Shown here in pieces: positions 12,142 through 61,875 of a stretch of 64,000 bases of DNA. Positions within the stretch are counted from its first letter, which is position 1. Every line of letters begins with the position of its first letter. A program made the translations under genes and the position numbers. Below the pieces are notes generated by a model. It had not been told where the DNA came from, did no database searches, and saw only the letters and a program-made list of their open reading frames with translations. Origin of the DNA: an uncultured Bacilli bacterium (lineage in GTDB: Bacteria; Bacillota_I; Bacilli_A; RF39; UBA660); NCBI GenBank assembly GCA_947627385.1, contig CANQVV010000001.1:40865-104864 (forward strand), in the 5' to 3' direction.

Positions 12142-12594
12142 TTATTTAAAAATATCTTTATATAAAATTATTCTGCGAGTATAAGAATCTTTTATTAAAG
12201 GATGACCATTTCTAGTATGACCACAATATTCTCTTTCAAAACTTTCTAATATACTATTAATATACATAATATTTTCAATTGTAACTTGTTCTTTTACTAT
12301 CATATCAAAGAGTTCACTATTTATATCTTCAAACATATCATAATCATAATCTTCTATAATATGTAAATAATCATGGGAAGTTTTGCGGTTAAGTAAAGCT
12401 AAATTCCATAAATAATATCCCGTATCAAAGCCATTTTTTTCACACTCACAACGTGATACAACAACATGATGAAAAGAAAGGGAGTTAATATTTTTAAAAG
12501 GATATCCCATAAAATCAAATTTTAATTTTTTTAATAAATATTTTTTTAGCATTATATTTTTTAAATCTGAATTACGCATATTACCACTACCCAC
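12142..12594 (-). CDS. HNH-like nuclease domain protein
   Basis: SFHHVV...WNLALLNRKTSHDYLH resembles an HNH His-Asn-His core. Weak call. Confidence 0.4.
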   Translation of the reverse strand: MGSGNMRNSDLKNIMLKKYLLKKLKFDFMGYPFKNINSLSFHHVVVSRCECEKNGFDTGYYLWNLALLNRKTSHDYLHIIEDYDYDMFEDINSELFDMIVKEQVTIENIMYINSILESFEREYCGHTRNGHPLIKDSYTRRIILYKDIFK

Positions 12595-12654
12595 TGAATC
12601 ACTAATATAGTTATAACATTTTTTTTAAATATTGAAAATGCTTTTTGACAAAAT

Positions 12655-14265
12655 TTATACTTTTTTTATAATATATGGATCATCTTTTGTTCCAGTTCCT
12701 AATAAAGTTATATTACTTGATAAATAAAAGACAGGTCTCACATAAAATGCTTGACCAAAATTATAATGACCAGCTAGACCTTCTGATGGACTATATGTTC
12801 CATTTATATATGATTGAGCATAAAAGGCATATTCATAATAATAACCTCTTCGAGATAATAAAAGTTCACTTTTTCTAACACCATTATTATTAATATGAAT
12901 CCAATTACTAAGGCCAATTGCAGGAGAAATAATATAGGTATTAGCATATGCTAAATAAAAATCAGAATAATTTAAAATACCTATTTTGGCATTAACAAAA
13001 TCGGTCCAAACATTATCTACTGGATAATAATATGTTACAGTTCCTTTATATCCCCCATTAGTAGCTACCGTTTCAGTTCTTCCCAAAGAATCACTTTCAG
13101 CTTTTACATAATATAATGAACTTTTTTTACCACTTTCAACTTCAAAAAAATTAATAATACTTTTAGTATTAGCTGTTACTAAATCACCATATAGCCATTG
13201 ATGATCTGATATCAAATCATACCAATTAATGTCTAAATTATTTGGTACATAATCATTATTATTTAAAAAATTTGTTCCATTTATAGCTTTGTAAGACTCA
13301 GTATCTGGCCAAATAACATTATCATCATAACTTCTTGACCATTGAAATAAATTATTTCCAAGTGAATCTTTTTTTATTATTTTTAATTCATTGGTAAATG
13401 TATCTATTCCCATTATCCTATACATATGATGTTCTTCATCTTCTAAACATTCATTTTTATTTGTGGTGCCAAAACATATATAATTATTCTTTATTGTATC
13501 ATTTGTACCTTGAAATCTTCTAAGAGTATCTTCTCTTTCAGCTGTACTTTTTAAATTTTCCAATTGAGTTGAAGAATTTTTTTCCAAAATTTTTTCTACA
13601 TCACTTTTTTCTACACTATTACACTTAATATTTGATATTTTTAAAGAAACTAATAATTCTTTACCTGCCAAATAAATTTGACTATTATTTTTATTGTTTA
13701 TTTTTAAATAACTTTTAATATCTTGACTACCATTAATATTAATAACAAAATCTAATGTAAAATTCATTTGACCAGTTTCTTTTAAATCATATAAATCTAT
13801 AAATTTGACGGAAGTTCCACCAGAAATAAATAAAAATGCATCATCATTTTCTAATACACTTCCCATACTATTTAAAGAAGTATCTAAATTAACCATAACA
13901 TTTACTGAACATTTATTTCTTAAAGTCAAATTTTCAGAAACTAATTTTGCAACAATAGTCTTAGCTTCATCATCAGAAGTTACATAGCTTTTACTATTAT
14001 CACTTGTTGAATAGTATGATCCAATATTTTCTAAAACCATATCAGAATTTTTCAAATTAATATGTAATTTACTTTCTAAACCATTTAATGCAATACTTTC
14101 TGAGGGTGGCATTTTAATATTAATGGTTGAATTTGCTACTGTACTTACAATATCTACATTAAAATATGCATACGTTGCCCCGATTACTAATACTAGTAAT
14201 GTTACAACTCCAATTATTGATGTCATTATCATTTTTCTTTTATCTTGATTACCATTGTCTTCCAT
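12655..14265 (-). CDS. secreted protein with TasA/SipW-cognate-type signal peptide (GATYAYFNV)
   Basis: N-terminus KRKMIMTSIIGVVTLLVLVIGATYAYFNVD matches the SipW-dependent signal class (TIGR04088-like). C-terminal GTGTKDDPY motif. Strong RBS AAAGGAG. Confidence 0.6.
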   Translation of the reverse strand: MEDNGNQDKRKMIMTSIIGVVTLLVLVIGATYAYFNVDIVSTVANSTINIKMPPSESIALNGLESKLHINLKNSDMVLENIGSYYSTSDNSKSYVTSDDEAKTIVAKLVSENLTLRNKCSVNVMVNLDTSLNSMGSVLENDDAFLFISGGTSVKFIDLYDLKETGQMNFTLDFVININGSQDIKSYLKINNKNNSQIYLAGKELLVSLKISNIKCNSVEKSDVEKILEKNSSTQLENLKSTAEREDTLRRFQGTNDTIKNNYICFGTTNKNECLEDEEHHMYRIMGIDTFTNELKIIKKDSLGNNLFQWSRSYDDNVIWPDTESYKAINGTNFLNNNDYVPNNLDINWYDLISDHQWLYGDLVTANTKSIINFFEVESGKKSSLYYVKAESDSLGRTETVATNGGYKGTVTYYYPVDNVWTDFVNAKIGILNYSDFYLAYANTYIISPAIGLSNWIHINNNGVRKSELLLSRRGYYYEYAFYAQSYINGTYSPSEGLAGHYNFGQAFYVRPVFYLSSNITLLGTGTKDDPYIIKKV

Positions 14266-14444
14266 AAATCTTTACTCCTTTTATTATTATGGATAAATTA
14301 TTACTCTTTAATGTATATCTTACTTCTTTATTTTATCATATTTATCGTATTTATGTATATGTTATTAATTCTATTTTGTTATATTATGTAAATTATTATT
14401 GTTGATAACTTCCATATTATACAATTCTTCCTACTTTACAAAGT

Positions 14445-14472
14445 AATTATATAATACCCCCCCCGGAGTCAA
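14445..14472 (-). promoter_or_regulatory. candidate sigma-A promoter: TTGACT, then CC, G8, TATTA (15 nt spacer), then TATAAT
   Basis: Minus strand reads TTGACTCCGGGGGGGGTATTATATAAT. This is the only 8-nt G/C homopolymer in the window. It is about 185 nt upstream of the start of CDS 12655..14265. Confidence 0.45.
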
Positions 14473-14520
14473 GATTTTGCTTTTATTTTGTTTATATTAT
14501 GTCAAAAAAATAAGTAAATT

Positions 14521-14826
14521 TTAATTTTCACTTATTTTTTTATAAATATCTTTTATTTCTTCCGGAGTTCGATAGCCAATTTCTTTTTGCATTAAAAGGC
14601 CATCTTTATAAAAACATAATGTAGGAACACTCATAATGCCAAATTTCATAGCTAAATCAGTATATTTATCTGCATCAACTTTTAACACATCCATATAATC
14701 AATTTCTTCTAGGATTGGCGCAAGCATTTTACAAGGTCCACACCACTCAGTATAAAAATCAACTAAAATATAACCTTTGGCTACTATATCATCAAAGTCT
14801 TTGGCATTTTCTAAATGTTTAACCAT
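14521..14826 (-). CDS. trxA: thioredoxin
   Basis: WCGPC active site. 101 aa. Confidence 0.95.
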   Translation of the reverse strand: MVKHLENAKDFDDIVAKGYILVDFYTEWCGPCKMLAPILEEIDYMDVLKVDADKYTDLAMKFGIMSVPTLCFYKDGLLMQKEIGYRTPEEIKDIYKKISEN

Positions 14827-15548
14827 TTTAATGCTCCTTCACCAAATAAGACATCTTGAAGACCTACTTTACCCGTATCAACTAATTCTTGGGCTCTTTC
14901 TTTGGAAATCATACGATAACTTATTTCAATTTGTAAAATTCGTAAATTTAAGGCTTTTAATTCTTCCTCAGTATATTCTTTCTTTTCAGTTATAGCATTA
15001 GTAATTTCACTAATGGCATTTCTTGAACTTCCAAAATAATTAGCTATTAATGGTGTATGATTTAACATAAAATCAGCAACCTTACTTTCATGGATAAAAC
15101 CGGCTGTAACTGTAAATGCTGATAAGACAAATAATATAACATAAACATAAATCCATGATTCTAAAAAGCCTAATATAGCGCCACAAATTTTAGATGGAAT
15201 AACCCAAATAACAGTAAATTTTAATAAAGTATCAATAAAACCGGTAACAGCAATTATAATATTTAATAAGCAATATAATAAAACAAAAATTAAAATGAAA
15301 GCAATAGCGTGATATATTAAAACATTTAATGAAACTAAATTAGCTAAGGCCCCAAATTTAAAGAATGGTAAATGATCAATTAAAAAATTAGCCAAAACAT
15401 CTTTTAGGGCATAACTAATCATTACAATTGCAACTAAGCCAACAAAATTTACTATTGTTTTAATAAGTCCTCTTTTCCATCCAGCAAGTAATCCAAGTAA
15501 AATAAATACTACAATTATAATATCAATAACATAATTCATTCTATTCAT
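14811..15548 (-). CDS. cvpA: CvpA family membrane protein
   Basis: Four-TM N-terminal CvpA-like domain followed by a C-terminal extension. Confidence 0.6.
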   Translation of the reverse strand: MNRMNYVIDIIIVVFILLGLLAGWKRGLIKTIVNFVGLVAIVMISYALKDVLANFLIDHLPFFKFGALANLVSLNVLIYHAIAFILIFVLLYCLLNIIIAVTGFIDTLLKFTVIWVIPSKICGAILGFLESWIYVYVILFVLSAFTVTAGFIHESKVADFMLNHTPLIANYFGSSRNAISEITNAITEKKEYTEEELKALNLRILQIEISYRMISKERAQELVDTGKVGLQDVLFGEGALKWLNI

Positions 15549-37267: not shown

Positions 37268-38278
37268 TTAAATGTAGATTTCCCATAAATTTTTTATTTG
37301 ACTTTTTATACGATCAAATTCCCATAATATACTACTACGTTCTTTACTATTAGGATCATTTACTTTAAATTTACCATCTTCTACTTTGGCAATGACAATA
37401 TAATGACCATTAATAGTAAAATCACCTTTACGCAAATTACAAATAATATAATGATTATTATTTAAAGCATTTTTCATACTACTTTCAGATAACGGCAGTT
37501 CATTTACTTTTAAACCATAATCTTTGGCTCCTTCTCTAATTAAATCCCAAGTAGTACCTGAATTTTCCACATAATAACCTTTTTCCTCAGCTAATTTTGC
37601 TACTTCATAAGGAGTAATTGAATTATCTTTTTTTAAAGCCGCAATAACCATAGCTAAGGAAGTAGGGCCACAACCACTTATTGCAATATTACTTGTTCCA
37701 TAATCACCATAACCCCATCTTTCATCCCATTGAAATAACTCAGGAATTTTTTCACTAAAAGAACCGATATTATCACTATAAACTTTTCCTTTTTTATTAG
37801 GATAATCCAGAACAAAAGAAGTAAGTTCTCTATTCATCGATAATGACATTAATAATTTCTCCGGATATTCATCATAATTATTAATTATTTGATTAATTCG
37901 TTTATCTAATTTACTAAATTCTTTTAATCTTTTTAATATAAATGGTTTTACATCTTTATTTTCATCTTTATTACTAAAAAATTCTTCATCATAATATCTT
38001 AATACAGAAACATCATCATAACTTTTAGGAGTATTATCTTCAATTTCTTCATCATTATTATTTATTTCTTCATCATTATTTATTTCAGGTTCATTTACTT
38101 TTTCATTATTATTTACTTTCTTATCAAAAATAGATTTTATAACAAAAAAACTACCAAATACTAATAATAAAATAACTATAATTTTAACAATATTATTTAT
38201 TTTTTTCTTTTTTCTTTTCATATTTTTCTCCATTAAATAAAATGGCGTCCCCGAGAAGATTTGAACTTCCGACCCCAC
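37268..38278 (-). CDS. membrane-anchored peptidase C39-like domain protein (YvpB/BtrH-like)
   Basis: N-terminal TM, acidic linker, then GCGPTSLAMVIAAL (Cys-containing C39-like motif). Confidence 0.55.
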   Translation of the reverse strand: MGSEVQIFSGTPFYLMEKNMKRKKKKINNIVKIIVILLLVFGSFFVIKSIFDKKVNNNEKVNEPEINNDEEINNNDEEIEDNTPKSYDDVSVLRYYDEEFFSNKDENKDVKPFILKRLKEFSKLDKRINQIINNYDEYPEKLLMSLSMNRELTSFVLDYPNKKGKVYSDNIGSFSEKIPELFQWDERWGYGDYGTSNIAISGCGPTSLAMVIAALKKDNSITPYEVAKLAEEKGYYVENSGTTWDLIREGAKDYGLKVNELPLSESSMKNALNNNHYIICNLRKGDFTINGHYIVIAKVEDGKFKVNDPNSKERSSILWEFDRIKSQIKNLWEIYI

Positions 38279-41953: not shown

Positions 41954-42592
41954 TTACATTTGTAAATATTCTCGCATTTTAGATATTCCCTTTTTTTCAT
42001 ATCTAGATACCATTACTTGGGTCATATTAAGTTTTTTGGCAACTTCACTTTGAGTTAAATCTTCAAAATATCTCGATTTAATAATATCTTTTTCTGACTG
42101 ATTTAAAACTTTAAAACTATCATAAATTAATATTTTAGTATCAAAATCAATATCTGTACCTATGCATTCATAAGCACATCGTTCATCTTCACTATTACTA
42201 TCCAAAGATAAAATACTATCGGCACAACCACAAGCCATTTCTATTTCATCAAGTGGTAAACCTAAAAATTCAGCCATTTCTAAATTTGTAGGTATTTTAT
42301 TTAATCTTTGGGCTAAAATATATCTAGCTTGTTCTATTTTTTTATATAATCTTAGTATGTCTTTACTTATTTTTAAATTTTTATTACTAGCTAATAGATA
42401 CATTTCTCCAAAAATATAATCATGAGCATAAGTAGAAAATTTAGTATTACTATTTTTTTGATACTTTTTTAATGCTTTAAGTAACCCTACTACTCCGGCT
42501 TGATATAAGTCATTTTTATCAATACCATAAAAATGACTTGCTATCTTCCAAATCATTTTTTCATTATCTTTTAATATCTGTTCATAGTTCAC
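41954..42592 (-). CDS. sigF: sporulation sigma factor SigF-like (compact, 212 aa)
   Basis: Sigma-70 regions 2 and 4 (TQVMVSRYEKKGISKMR). Sits between spoIIAA and spoVAC, as sigF does in Clostridia. Confidence 0.75.
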   Translation of the reverse strand: MNYEQILKDNEKMIWKIASHFYGIDKNDLYQAGVVGLLKALKKYQKNSNTKFSTYAHDYIFGEMYLLASNKNLKISKDILRLYKKIEQARYILAQRLNKIPTNLEMAEFLGLPLDEIEMACGCADSILSLDSNSEDERCAYECIGTDIDFDTKILIYDSFKVLNQSEKDIIKSRYFEDLTQSEVAKKLNMTQVMVSRYEKKGISKMREYLQM

Positions 42593-42596
42593 CCTT

Positions 42597-42929
42597 TCAC
42601 ACCTCTATCATATTTAAAGCTGCTTTTTCTGATGCCACCATCTTAATATGTAAACGTTTTAATTTAAGCAATACTGCATCTGGTACCTGACATAAAAATA
42701 TTTTGCCATTATTTTTCTTGATGATACACTTTGAATTTAAAATAGCATCTACACCCAATTCAGAAATACTTTTTAAATTAGCTAAATTATAAATTAAATA
42801 TTTAATTTTATGTTTAGTTAAAATAGGTATTAAATAATAATTTATTTTACTGCAACCTTTTTTGTCAAAATTACCATTTAATCTTACAAAAAGTACTTCC
42901 TTATCATATTCCAAATCCATTTTTAACAT
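42597..42929 (-). CDS. spoIIAA: anti-sigma factor antagonist SpoIIAA-like (STAS domain)
   Basis: STAS motif NLANLKSISELGVDAIL with a phosphorylatable Ser. Start taken at the ATG with an AGGTGA RBS, not the TTG used by the ORF track. Confidence 0.7.
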   Translation of the reverse strand: MLKMDLEYDKEVLFVRLNGNFDKKGCSKINYYLIPILTKHKIKYLIYNLANLKSISELGVDAILNSKCIIKKNNGKIFLCQVPDAVLLKLKRLHIKMVASEKAALNMIEV

Positions 42930-42974
42930 ACATTCACCTGCTATTTTAATATAGAACAATATTTTTTTATTTTA

Positions 42975-43032: not shown

Positions 43033-44388
43033 TTATTTAGTAAACTTATACCACAAAAGTAAATTAGATTTATCTACCGGATTAGGTATATTTGTATAGT
43101 TTGCTTTGATTTCTGATTCACTTAATGCTCGATCAAATATTAAAGCATCACTAAATGTTGCATATGCAAATGCACCGCCATAAAGGCTACCTGGATTGGC
43201 ACCTAAAAAAATTGGTTCAGTTGACCCTCTTATATTATCAGTAATTGGATAATTAGCTGTTTCTACTCCATTAATATATATTTTTATTGTTTGACCATCA
43301 TATGTTGCTACTAATGTATACCAAGTACCAATTTTTATTTCTTCACTTGAATTTACAGCTTTATAACCATTAATCTGTGGATAAAAGCACAAATTACTAG
43401 AACAATCTGAGTAATGATATATAAAGCCCATTCCAGCAACCTCCCAATTTCCTATAATATGTTGAGAATCACCTTCAATATTTATTCTAACTCTTGTTAT
43501 TAATGATACTATATTTTTAAAATCATAATTAGCAAGTCCTGCATTAACCCAACCATTTTTATTATCATCACTGGTTGTTATTCCTTCATTATCTATTTTA
43601 ACTATATTATTGGCTATTCCTACATTACCATTACCACTTAAATCTTCTATTATTGTATCTCCTAAATTGGTTATCACACTGATGGCACTCTTAAATGTTT
43701 GACCTTTGGTACTATTATCATAAGTTGTTGTATGAGATACTCCACTTTTCTCTTCTCCTGTCGATAAATCATACATTGCTGTATCCCCTTCATAATAATC
43801 TACCCATAAATATATTTTATAAGTATTGGTTGTATTTTTTTCAATACTAGTTCCATCTATTACATAACTTTCTCTATTATTATAACTACTAGTGGCACTC
43901 TTACTATCTAAATTCTTATTTAATAACTCTGAGGTTGTATTTCCTGTCGGTAACATTTGCAAACTAGTTAAATAATTGGGCTTTTTCCAAACCACTTCAC
44001 TTCCTGTACCTATCTTTTTCTTGACTTGGTATCTTATTTTACTACTTGCTATACTACTTTCTCCACTTTTTGTTAATGTTGTTAGTATTAACGAATAACT
44101 TACTTTATTACTACAATTATTTTTTACTTGTACTTTGATAGGATTTGTTATATTTGCTGTGGCATAACTATCTGTTACCGGATAATTAAATGGCAAACTA
44201 ATATTTCCACTACTATCATTGGCTATACTTATATCTATACAATCAGTTTTAGTTGTTATAGTTGAATTAGCTATACTTCCTGTTACATTTACTTGAAAGT
44301 AAGCATATGTACTTGTTACTGTTACTATTATTAATAATACTACAAACATTACTGCATATATTAGATATTTTTTGTTATTATCTTCCAT
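43033..44388 (-). CDS. secreted LamG (concanavalin-like) domain protein with TasA/SipW-cognate-type signal peptide (TSTYAYFQV)
   Basis: N-terminus YLIYAVMFVVLLIIVTVTSTYAYFQVN. C-terminal Laminin_G_3-like WYTLVATYDGQTIKIYINGVE...IFLGANPG. Start at the ATG at 44388 with an AGGAGA RBS. Confidence 0.65.
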   Translation of the reverse strand: MEDNNKKYLIYAVMFVVLLIIVTVTSTYAYFQVNVTGSIANSTITTKTDCIDISIANDSSGNISLPFNYPVTDSYATANITNPIKVQVKNNCSNKVSYSLILTTLTKSGESSIASSKIRYQVKKKIGTGSEVVWKKPNYLTSLQMLPTGNTTSELLNKNLDSKSATSSYNNRESYVIDGTSIEKNTTNTYKIYLWVDYYEGDTAMYDLSTGEEKSGVSHTTTYDNSTKGQTFKSAISVITNLGDTIIEDLSGNGNVGIANNIVKIDNEGITTSDDNKNGWVNAGLANYDFKNIVSLITRVRINIEGDSQHIIGNWEVAGMGFIYHYSDCSSNLCFYPQINGYKAVNSSEEIKIGTWYTLVATYDGQTIKIYINGVETANYPITDNIRGSTEPIFLGANPGSLYGGAFAYATFSDALIFDRALSESEIKANYTNIPNPVDKSNLLLWYKFTK

Positions 44389-44476: not shown

Positions 44477-44510
44477 ATATTATAAAATTTACACAGAGGT
44501 TAAAAATATT

Positions 44511-44747
44511 ATGGATCGTTTAAAAGAAATTAGAGAAGACAGAAATTTAAAACAAAAAGATATCAGTAAAATGCTTAATGTTTCCCAAGTAGCTTATAGT
44601 TACTATGAAATTGGCAAAAGACAAATACCAATTGATATTTTAAAAAAACTTGCAAAAATATACAATGTATCTACTGACTATTTATTATATTTAACTGATG
44701 AAAAGAAGCCTTATCCAAAAAGTATGATTAATAAAGAAAAAAATTAG
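44511..44747 (+). CDS. XRE-family helix-turn-helix transcriptional regulator
   Basis: 78 aa. LKQKDISKMLNVSQVAYSYYEIGKRQIP is an HTH_3 motif. Confidence 0.8.
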   Translation: MDRLKEIREDRNLKQKDISKMLNVSQVAYSYYEIGKRQIPIDILKKLAKIYNVSTDYLLYLTDEKKPYPKSMINKEKN

Positions 44748-44767: not shown

Positions 44768-45451
44768 TTATATTTTCATTATAGTTTGTAATTTTTTTAC
44801 TATCTTTTTTTCAATTCTAGATATATATGATTGAGAAATACCTAACATTTCTGCTACTTCTTTTTGGGTATATTCCTCAGTATTATTAAGGCCATATCTT
44901 AAAGTCATTATTTCTTTTTCTCGATCATCTAATACTTCAATTTCTTTTTGTAAAGTTTCTTTATCCATTACTTTTTCAAATTCTTTGGGTACAACATCTT
45001 CGTCAGTTCCTAAAATATCTTCTAATCTAAGTTCATTACCTTCGGCATCATAATTTAATGTTTCTTCTAAACTTATCTCTATTTTTTTTCGTTTATTTTT
45101 TCTTAAAAACATTAATATTTCATTAGCAATACACCGTGATGCATAAGTTGCTAGTTTTATATTTTTATCTATTTTATAGGTATTAATACCTTTAATTAAG
45201 CCAATAGAACCAATAGATACTAAGTCTTCGATATCAAAACCTGTATTTTCATATTTTTTGGCTAAAAAAACTACTAATCTTAAATTATGTTCAATTAAAA
45301 TATTACGAGCTTCAATATCACCTTGATGAGCCTTAATTAAATATTCTAATTCTTTTTCTTTGGATAAAGGTGGTGGTAATTTATCAGTGGCTCCGACAAA
45401 AAAACAATCTTGATATTTTCTTTTTAAAAAAGCTATTATCTTTTTAAACAT
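44768..45451 (-). CDS. sigE: pro-sigma-E (sporulation sigma factor SigE) with N-terminal propeptide
   Basis: Pro-sequence ...LPPPLSKEKELEYL, then regions 2 to 4. Directly downstream of spoIIGA. Confidence 0.85.
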   Translation of the reverse strand: MFKKIIAFLKRKYQDCFFVGATDKLPPPLSKEKELEYLIKAHQGDIEARNILIEHNLRLVVFLAKKYENTGFDIEDLVSIGSIGLIKGINTYKIDKNIKLATYASRCIANEILMFLRKNKRKKIEISLEETLNYDAEGNELRLEDILGTDEDVVPKEFEKVMDKETLQKEIEVLDDREKEIMTLRYGLNNTEEYTQKEVAEMLGISQSYISRIEKKIVKKLQTIMKI

Positions 45452-45454
45452 ATT

Positions 45455-46204
45455 TTATTCCTCCAATAAATGATAATTAAGTAAACAATCGATACTTTCA
45501 AATCCTTTAAAAGTATCGGATAATCCTAGTAAATAATTTGTATAAATTTGTTTTTCAATTATAATATTTTTAACACCAATACAAGGAAGTAAACTTTTTT
45601 TATTAACAGTATTAATTGGTACATATATAGGACTTCTTATATTATATATGCCTTTTAATTTATTTTTATTTATTAAAATTATATATTTACCTGTAATTGG
45701 ATCTTTTAATTTATTGCCACTATCAATAAAACCATTTAAAAGTAATTTGCGATTATTTTTTAAAGTTATTGTAACAATTTTATAATAATTAATCATTTCT
45801 TTTAATTTTTTTTGCTCTTTAACATATAAATATAAAATTAAAGGAGCAAATATTAAAATAAGTAAATATGATAAATTATTAAATTCTAATTTTAAATAAT
45901 ATAAAAAACCAGCTAATATAACACTTGTCATATATAAATAAATAATATTATTAAAAAAATATTGGATATTTTTATAACCATAAGTAATTATTAACATTAA
46001 AATTGATGTCAATATTTTTAAGATAAATAAAAAATATTTATTAAAAGGAAGAAAAATTATTAAAGTAGATATGGCACCAAAAAAAGAACCTAAAAACAAT
46101 CTTTTTAACTTAGTATTTCGTTTCAAAGTAACACTTACTGTCATTAGAAGTAAGAAATCATAAATAAAATTAAGGATTATAAGTAAATCTATATAGATTG
46201 TCAT
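45455..46204 (-). CDS. spoIIGA: sigma-E processing peptidase SpoIIGA
   Basis: Five-TM N-domain plus aspartic protease motif GFIDSGN. Confidence 0.85.
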   Translation of the reverse strand: MTIYIDLLIILNFIYDFLLLMTVSVTLKRNTKLKRLFLGSFFGAISTLIIFLPFNKYFLFILKILTSILMLIITYGYKNIQYFFNNIIYLYMTSVILAGFLYYLKLEFNNLSYLLILIFAPLILYLYVKEQKKLKEMINYYKIVTITLKNNRKLLLNGFIDSGNKLKDPITGKYIILINKNKLKGIYNIRSPIYVPINTVNKKSLLPCIGVKNIIIEKQIYTNYLLGLSDTFKGFESIDCLLNYHLLEE

Positions 46205-61534: not shown

Positions 61535-61875
61535 AAATAATATTAATAAGCCATGTTCTGTACTCATATGAGTGACAAATATTTATCTATGCTTTTGCAT
61601 CCGTAAGTTAGTTCATTTTCCGTCTTACAGTTCCCTTACCATAATTTAGGTTTCTCACTCGTGGGGTTTACCGCGTTTCATTTATTTGTTACCAAATAAC
61701 TCGTTTCTGTGGCACTTTAAACCTACTATATCTTTAAAAGATAATTTCGGTGCCGTTAGCTTTTGCTACCTTAGGTTATTTTTTTCCTAAGCACGAACAC
61801 TACAATCATCACAGATTGTGTGAGCATGGACTTTCCTCTACATTAAAATTAATGCAGCATTTGTCTAAATATTAT
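61535..61875 (-). ncRNA. rnpB: RNase P RNA (type B)
   Basis: Minus strand has GTAGAGGAAAGTCCATGCTC (P4), AAAGTGCCACAG, ACGCGGTAAACCCC, GAGAAACCTAAATTATGGTAAGGGAAC and ACAGAACATGGCTTA, each matching B. subtilis rnpB. The P1 helix AATAATATT/AATATTATT overlaps the gpsB stop. Confidence 0.9.

Follow-up and report, generated by a model that had tools for sequence, protein, structure and literature searches.

Genes and features at the locus

In the window, the whole 64-kb stretch of DNA that we analysed, a gene for a 536-aa protein lies within a strain-specific segment that consists of a 237-nt upstream region, the gene itself, 6 nt more and nothing else (Table 1). We retrieved contigs of the same species by exact-protein look-ups and found, in several metagenomes, empty-site alleles (L005, L006, L008, L011, L012, L013) in which trx is followed directly by a 150-aa gene, with flanks 97-99% identical to the window. 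That the gene and its promoter belong to such a segment was not mentioned in the first-pass annotation of this DNA. Both junctions carry TTTTG (14507-14503 and 12653-12649), and no recombinase, terminal (inverted) repeats or regulator gene were found on the 1854 bp. The empty site reads TTTTTTTG/TCAAAAA, a near-palindrome of the form TTTTTG(T)CAAAAA. The neighbouring genes are trx, cvpA, rnhC, the gene for the 150-aa protein and that for dCMP deaminase. The 150-aa gene downstream of the insertion site (12142-12594, minus strand) has no Pfam or NCBIfam match, and its product shows an HH...N...H pattern that is, by eye, reminiscent of HNH nucleases.

Table 1. Features of the locus, with positions in the 64-kb window.
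Feature	Position	Strand	Basis or remark
Strain-specific segment (5' module and gene), 1854 bp	12649..14502	-	Comparison with empty-site alleles
CDS, 536 aa	12655..14265	-	Predicted N-terminal helix, beta-sandwich and C-type lectin-like domain
237-nt 5' module: distal promoter, variable linker, proximal promoter, RBS	14266..14502	-	Alignment to L101
Proximal promoter-like element P1	14330..14359	-	Promoter scan match and conservation among family members
Distal promoter, -10 hexamer TATAAT	14446..14451	-	Conserved in L101 (16-nt spacer there)
Candidate slippage site GGGGGGGG, G8 (C8 on the plus strand)	14457..14464	-	Sequence reading
Distal promoter, -35-like hexamer TTGACT	14467..14472	-	Conserved in L101 with 10 nt upstream
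Thioredoxin gene (trx)	14521..14826	-	Immediately upstream of the module

Segment-bearing contigs from other assemblies (ERZ27249505, ERR10663718, ERR10663720, ERR10663721) match the window at 100% identity, over stretches of up to 7.6 kb, and all have G8. With the window included, the five assemblies that carry the locus represent one clone, with 0 differences among their consensus sequences, and are therefore a weak test of tract stability. Logan contigs cross the tract unbroken.

The gene product and its family

In the AlphaFold model of the 536-aa protein (pLDDT 79, pTM 0.74), residues 5-32 form a helix, residues from about 57 to 217 a beta-sandwich and those from about 248 to 535 an alpha/beta domain, which is predicted to have a C-type lectin-like fold. 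The best match of this last domain is the N-terminal domain of the IgA peptidase of Thomasclavelia ramosa (PDB 9qa6), a domain described as C-type lectin-like with 8Q4E as its nearest neighbour (PMC12237041). Unlike that enzyme, the window protein lacks both a metallopeptidase domain and an HExxH motif. A sequence-profile search of the PDB with the window protein returned no relative, and the protein has no match to Pfam PF19789 (DUF6273). Of 18 aligned relatives, 2 match this model weakly, and P0027 scores 36.4 bits against a cut-off of 23.5.

The first-pass annotation had called the product a TasA-type secreted protein with a SipW-cognate signal peptide. Its helix carries VIGATYAYF, in line with the family N-terminal consensus KKxIIxxIxGxxxLLxLVIGATYAYF, and together with the model this supports an extracytoplasmic location, secreted or at the surface. 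The signal class held less well: against TIGR04088 the window protein scores 17.7 bits (E 0.003) where the curated cut-off is 19, and its sister proteins score 12.8 and 14.7 bits, so that the SipW-type signal is a near miss, a resemblance rather than membership. Like TasA and TapA of Bacillus subtilis, the protein has a hydrophobic helix that ends in G-A-T-Y-A-Y-F and resembles the SipW-cognate class; unlike them, it scores below the signal cut-off, shows no TasA/camelysin (Peptidase_M73) fold in its mature part and has no sipW in the window. For sipW we used a tblastn search with a SipW probe and a scan for the motif SGSMxP, and found no SipW-like gene in the 64-kb window, next to the 536-aa gene included. 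The TasA label is thus replaced by a beta-sandwich followed by a predicted C-type lectin-like domain. One family member weakly matches Peptidase_M73. A helix at residues 5-32 in front of beta-sandwich and lectin-like domains is the kind of secreted or surface product that phase-variable promoters control.

With P0006 as query, the family counts 779 proteins at E<=1e-10 and is restricted to low-G+C uncultured Bacilli such as those of rabbit-gut MAGs. Its members include mosaics (P0013, P0015 and P0016, on L021 and L102): between P0015 and P0016 identity is 100% in residues 1-230 and 67% in the rest, which suggests that recombination took place at the boundary between domains. Being large, mosaic, strain-variable and probably extracytoplasmic, the family is of the sort that contingency loci usually act on. 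When genome contigs were scanned with the protein, the matches were limited to three distant loci, and the species representatives lacked the gene of the window. Elsewhere in the window a second secreted protein of the same N-terminal class (MEDNNKK...TSTYAYFQV), with a Laminin_G_3 domain, is encoded at 43033-44388 (minus strand); an XRE-type HTH gene (44487-44747, plus strand) lies divergently upstream of it, as in L020 and L021, and the DNA coding for its signal peptide is 80% identical to that of P0015 and P0016. This second locus has no G/C tract.

A G8 tract in the spacer of a putative distal promoter

Read on the minus strand, the region upstream of the gene runs ...AAAGCAAAATC TTGACT CC GGGGGGGG TATTA TATAAT TACTTTG..., with CC at 14466-14465 and TATTA at 14456-14452. 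The near-consensus promoter TTGACT-CC-G8-TATTA-TATAAT of the first-pass annotation is therefore present as described, its -35 hexamer matching the consensus at 5/6 positions and its -10 hexamer at 6/6, and it does lie upstream of the CDS, with 180 nt rather than about 185 nt between the end of the -10 and the ATG (14265). The spacer, made up of CC, G8 and TATTA, is exactly 15 nt long, where a range of 15-16 nt had been given. Promoters of this organism typically have a TG extension, and the absence of one from the distal promoter counts against its being active.

The window has a G+C content of 25.4%, in agreement with the earlier figure of about 25%, and the claim that the tract is the sole 8-nt G/C homopolymer in 64 kb can be extended, as it is also the sole G/C run of at least 6 nt and the second longest is 5 nt. 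A mononucleotide model predicts 0.018 runs of at least 8 nt in the 64-kb window and extrapolation of the run-length decay about 0.06 per window, so that about one such tract per Mb is possible by chance. The G8 tract alone is thus unusual and not impossible in a whole genome, and its placement is more informative. With strict criteria (-35 at least 5/6, a perfect TATAAT and a total spacer of 13-20 nt), only 0.10% of the strand-positions in the window put an 8-nt block inside a promoter-like spacer, and with looser hexamer criteria 1.3% do, which makes the location of the tract unlikely to be due to chance.

TTGAC[AT]-N15-TATAAT occurs once in the window. In a census of pairs with a -35 of at least 5/6 and a perfect -10, the 17-nt spacer class has 9 matches and every other class 1-2, bearing out the earlier statement that 17 nt is optimal. 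This peak implies that the 15-nt distal spacer is off-optimum in this organism and that spacing should matter. G/C homopolymers commonly need 7-8 nt or more to slip; G8, and likewise the G9 of the sister copy L101 described below, has the length of the slippage tracts in phase-variable promoters controlled by simple sequence repeats (SSRs), and, judged by sequence only, the repeat sits inside a core promoter as in systems of the porA, opc and vlp type.

Other explanations of the tract were tried and rejected. High-G+C foreign DNA is ruled out as its origin, since the segment has a native G+C content (22-27%, like the flanks) and the tract is consequently no leftover of such DNA. A coding-frame switch fails because no ORF of at least 20 aa spans the tract. 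For a plus-strand promoter on the palindromic ATTATATAAT, the best -35-like box is 9 nt away and there is nothing downstream to transcribe. The small ORF MEVINNNNLHNITK (14415-14371) was rejected as a leader peptide: it lies in the region least conserved in L101 (72%), where its ATG is lost.

Two further observations concern base composition and symmetry. The whole window is 75% A+T, yet its A/T runs never exceed 8 nt (A8 seven times, T8 eighteen times). Positions 14415-14426 and 14445-14456 form an inverted repeat of 12 nt (11/12) around an 18-nt loop; the distal TATAAT falls in one arm and a second TATAAT (TTGTATAAT) in the other, which is not conserved in L101.

A sister copy with nine G

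Contig L101 (ENA ERZ27249022, found in two samples, coverage 12) carries the family gene P0006, whose product is 36% identical to the window protein. Homology of its upstream DNA to the window begins at ACATAAT (14502), the first base of the strain-specific segment, and the left flanks differ. From there to the ATG, identity is uneven: 18/22 positions (82%) at the module start, 16/16 on the -35 side, G8 against G9 in the tract, 13/14 over the 3' part of the spacer, the -10 and 3 nt beyond, 38/53 (72%) over the next 53 nt and 124/124 over the last 124 nt to the ATG (14389-14266). Tract length is the sole difference within the 30-nt core from TTGACT to TATAAT, and the wider 38-nt block (14480-14443) has one further substitution, 3' of the -10. 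In this alignment the distal promoter is a conserved island. As read from the two sequences, the tract sets the spacing between TTGACT and TATAAT, at 15 nt with the G8 of the window and at 16 nt with the G9 of its sister. Of the tract-length heterogeneity proposed in the first-pass annotation, a difference between gene copies (G8 versus G9) is thus seen, and at the window locus the consensus sequences of the one clone available all have G8. Both observed lengths, 8 and 9, are sub-optimal, and the 17-nt allele was not observed.

Conservation of the block and its flanks in two gene copies could also mean that CCGGGGGGGG is a constant cis element, either a regulator site or a spacer that sets promoter kinetics, in which case G8 and G9 would be tolerated noise. 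Members in other contexts adjoin divergent XRE-type regulators, which points to a regulated family. We nevertheless think a fixed-function G/C-rich spacer improbable, because no palindrome or repeat of the kind typical of operators includes the tract, the 1854-bp segment is without a regulator gene and a length change in a binding site is normally harmful. A by-product of joining or moving the segment or the 5' module is another conceivable origin of the G run, which is just 38 nt in from the left edge of the segment, the same edge at which homology to L101 starts. Such a scar seems very unlikely to us: the tract is off the junctions, which carry only TTTTG, neither a recombinase nor terminal repeats were found, and the run sits precisely between promoter hexamers.

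An element acting in RNA would require transcription through the tract. No terminator-like site was found in 14000-15000, hence none between trx and the module, and read-through RNA from trx could therefore include the G run. In such RNA, AAAUCUUGACUCC on the 5' side of the run would pair with the ribosome-binding region GGAGUAAAGAUUU and mask translation, with the run stabilising or tuning the structure; AAATCTTGACTCC (14465-14477) and GGAGTAAAGATTT (14266-14278), 186 nt apart, are indeed complementary at 12/13 positions, and both arms are conserved in L101. By our own estimate, however, a 12/13 match has a chance probability of about 0.2-0.3 in 271 AT-rich bases, and each arm is part of a block that is conserved in any case. 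The 255-nt leader folds no better than shuffled sequences (z = -1.26), and its minimum free energy structure skips the pairing. A search of Rfam at E<=10 gave no match in 14200-14560, so a known RNA element upstream of the gene was rejected, as was a terminator for trx, given the missing site in 14000-15000 and a leader without significant RNA structure. We regard regulation by this pairing as very unlikely.

The module recurs elsewhere in the family. On L102 (P0016) the same module is present on a contig that begins 18 nt downstream of the expected end of the tract, and the contigs of several family genes (L002/L003, L103) break in or beside the module, with the starts of L002 and L003 exactly k-1 = 30 nt short of where the window and L021 first differ. 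These breaks fit a repeated module. The P0055 contig begins 2 nt before the gene, and P0013 and P0057 returned no record. The homologue loci L014-L023, which come from related MAGs and total about 74 kb, have no G/C run of at least 6 nt; eight more distant homologue loci, also free of such runs, have ordinary 17-nt promoters or none that is recognisable. Searches with a flexible-tract pattern returned nothing in JGI metagenomes or viral contigs, the JGI pattern and the first viral pattern ending in TTAC and so being of a form that would miss the TTAT of the L101 type. Upstream of P0023 (L018 2948-2976, L019 131-159), TTGATA-17-TAAAAT has A9 in its spacer, identically in two samples, which may be another case of a homopolymer in a spacer within the family or may just reflect AT-richness.

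A proximal promoter-like element shared by family members

A second promoter-like element, P1, lies 95 nt downstream of the distal G-tract promoter and consists of TATACA (14359-14354), an 18-nt spacer and TATG-a-TAAAAT (14340-14330), the -10 of which is a perfect TRTGn extended -10. Behind it the module has the ribosome-binding site GGAG at 14278-14275 (minus strand). The 29-nt conserved core of P1 is TATATACA(T/C)AAATACGATAAATATGATA, and a 27-nt core occurs in one copy only within the window. P1 is 100% identical before four family members (the window gene, P0006, P0016 and P0015), and the 95-124 nt from P1 to the ATG are likewise 100% identical across these gene bodies, which are only 32-36% identical as proteins. 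One of the four, P0015 on L021 (32% protein identity to the window gene), stands in another genomic context next to a divergent XRE regulator; the conserved stretch is at L021 2900-3000, the 95 nt between P1 and its ATG match the window at 100% identity, and the G tract is absent. P0011 on L017 likewise has P1 and no G tract, its P1 core (at L017 2846-2872) being identical at 28/29 positions and the rest of its upstream region unalignable.

Within the window, 5 of 9 minus-strand matches to TRTGnTAnAAT fall in the approximately 10% of DNA that is intergenic and just upstream of genes, suggesting that this is the organism's usual promoter type. On the strength of this enrichment and of the conservation of P1 across family contexts, we regard P1 as a functioning promoter in this family. 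A search of JGI metagenomes with a 19-nt P1 core returned 77 matches, all unrelated and none beside a family gene, which represent chance matches or KYDKYD-type coding repeats. The presence of P1 before four members, one of them tract-free, indicates that the G-tract promoter is not the sole driver of the gene, and the assumption of the first-pass annotation that it was "the" promoter was accordingly given up. As P1 is independent of the tract, the tract can at most modulate expression and cannot gate it.

Two pairs of direct repeats run in register at 112-113 nt (14374-14392/14487-14505 and 14281-14299/14393-14411). The similarity of the two 113-nt halves exceeds that of shuffled sequences (6/2000) and modestly exceeds that of real AT-rich 113-mers (14/490). 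The repeats point to a stretch of about 113 nt having been duplicated in tandem long ago, with the G-tract and proximal promoters in equivalent positions.

Such a history would suit the main rival to a tunable promoter, namely that the distal promoter is a neutral relic, a decayed and mis-spaced copy that may be one half of the duplication, with expression coming from P1, from trx read-through or from both, and G8/G9 reflecting homopolymer drift. P1, the element conserved in all family contexts, is better conserved than the distal promoter, which counts against a tuning role for the latter. The 15- and 16-nt spacers both miss the 17-nt optimum, the clone is invariant at G8 and trx has no terminator. 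Against a relic, a run of eight or nine G flanked by consensus hexamers should decay in a genome of 25% G+C, whereas this block is the best-conserved distal part of the module in the comparison with L101; and it is improbable that the sole G/C tract would fall by chance exactly within a near-consensus spacer. We consider neutral drift a serious but rather doubtful explanation, and a fixed cis element, anti-Shine-Dalgarno pairing and a recombination scar as lesser rivals.

Slippage as a candidate means of tuning expression

The reading that we prefer, and to which we give about an even chance, is that the G tract is the slippage-tuned spacer of a distal sigma-A-type promoter, a rheostat like that of porA. 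Conservation of the distal promoter block together with a length change between copies was counted in its favour. The distal promoter would be recognised by the housekeeping sigma factor and would form part of a conserved 237-nt 5' module that precedes several genes of a hypervariable family, whose lectin-like products are secreted or surface proteins. Slipped-strand mispairing would alter the tract by +/-1 G and shift the spacer among 15, 16 and 17 nt, towards or away from the 17-nt optimum, thereby tuning promoter strength. The tract would thus act as a heritable, reversible rheostat, as in Neisseria meningitidis porA, with the present G8 allele as a low state. The effect would be graded, given a P1 that is independent of the tract: the switch would add transcription onto the basal or regulated level of P1, with no full on/off. 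Such a slippage "dimmer switch" is of a well-known kind and is here credible but unproven, and a tunable promoter like that of porA or vlp is plausible.

Neisseria, Haemophilus, Bordetella and mycoplasmas provide the textbook cases of switching by homopolymers in promoter spacers, and opc and fetA, with poly-C, are of the same type as porA. To our knowledge such switches have scarcely been documented in the spore-forming Firmicutes of the gut, and we know of none for these uncultured rabbit-gut Bacilli. In N. meningitidis porA, poly-G lies between the -35 and the -10, and 11G gives high expression, 10G 2-fold lower and 9G 13-fold lower expression (PMC3639595). The distal promoter resembles porA in that the spacer between its sigma-70-type hexamers consists mostly of a G/C homopolymer, in that the gene downstream is one for a predicted surface protein, and in that one-base changes alter the spacing, a porA tract two bases below the optimum being in the low or off state (PMC3639595). 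It differs in its host, which is Gram-positive-type, spore-forming and of 25% G+C, in its shorter tract (8-9) and in the second, tract-independent promoter downstream.

Low-G+C relatives of the Bacillota offer a second parallel. According to PMC10502178, which cites Citti & Wise 1995 and Persson 2002, the promoter of the vlp genes of Mycoplasma hyorhinis contains a poly-A tract and Vmm of M. mycoides has TA repeats in the promoter spacer. As described there, vlp and Vmm share with the present family a variable multigene family of surface proteins, and in vlp, as here, the conserved 5' region of the paralogues (promoter, leader and signal peptide) carries a simple-sequence tract while the gene bodies vary (PMC10502178). 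Unlike vlp and Vmm, the present tract is poly-G rather than poly-A or TA, and the proteins are no lipoproteins, having a helix with the GATYAYF motif and predicted lectin-like domains. The family members found here are also dispersed or strain-specific where vlp forms one cluster.

A broader and more tentative proposal, which we rate clearly below the tunable promoter itself, is that the locus belongs to a vlp-like contingency system in an uncultured spore-forming gut Bacillota, with cassette-borne, mosaic lectin-like exoproteins behind a constant 5' module that has a poly-G-tuned distal promoter. If true, this system would unite SSR phase variation, gene-body swapping and presence/absence polymorphism, with cassettes that have a discrete 5' edge coming and going between strains; we know of no description of any of the three in this lineage. 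The mechanism is already known, and what would be new is the host lineage and the packaging into a constant 5' module, swapped gene bodies and a discrete-edge segment. Should the tract work in this way, the lectin-like exoproteins, a family whose fold is related to that of the N-terminal domain in a gut IgA peptidase, would be marked as host- or phage-interaction factors under fluctuating selection. The pattern AATCTTGACTCC(G)nTATTATATAAT would then also provide a sequence handle for reading the expression state from metagenomic reads.

Host and whole window

The window encodes SpoIIGA (Peptidase_U4) with an adjacent sigma-E-like factor in two sporulation-gene regions (41954-42959 and 44768-46204, minus strand), so that the host seems to be a spore-former rather than a mollicute. 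The same regions hold another sigma factor, which has a small ORF upstream. RNase P RNA of class B is found at 61542-61872 (minus strand), and there are six tRNA genes, at 38246, 57694, 62473, 62557, 63829 and 63912. The minus strand holds 60 of the 69 genes of a crude ORF-based count, and the plus strand shows a strong skew of C over G.
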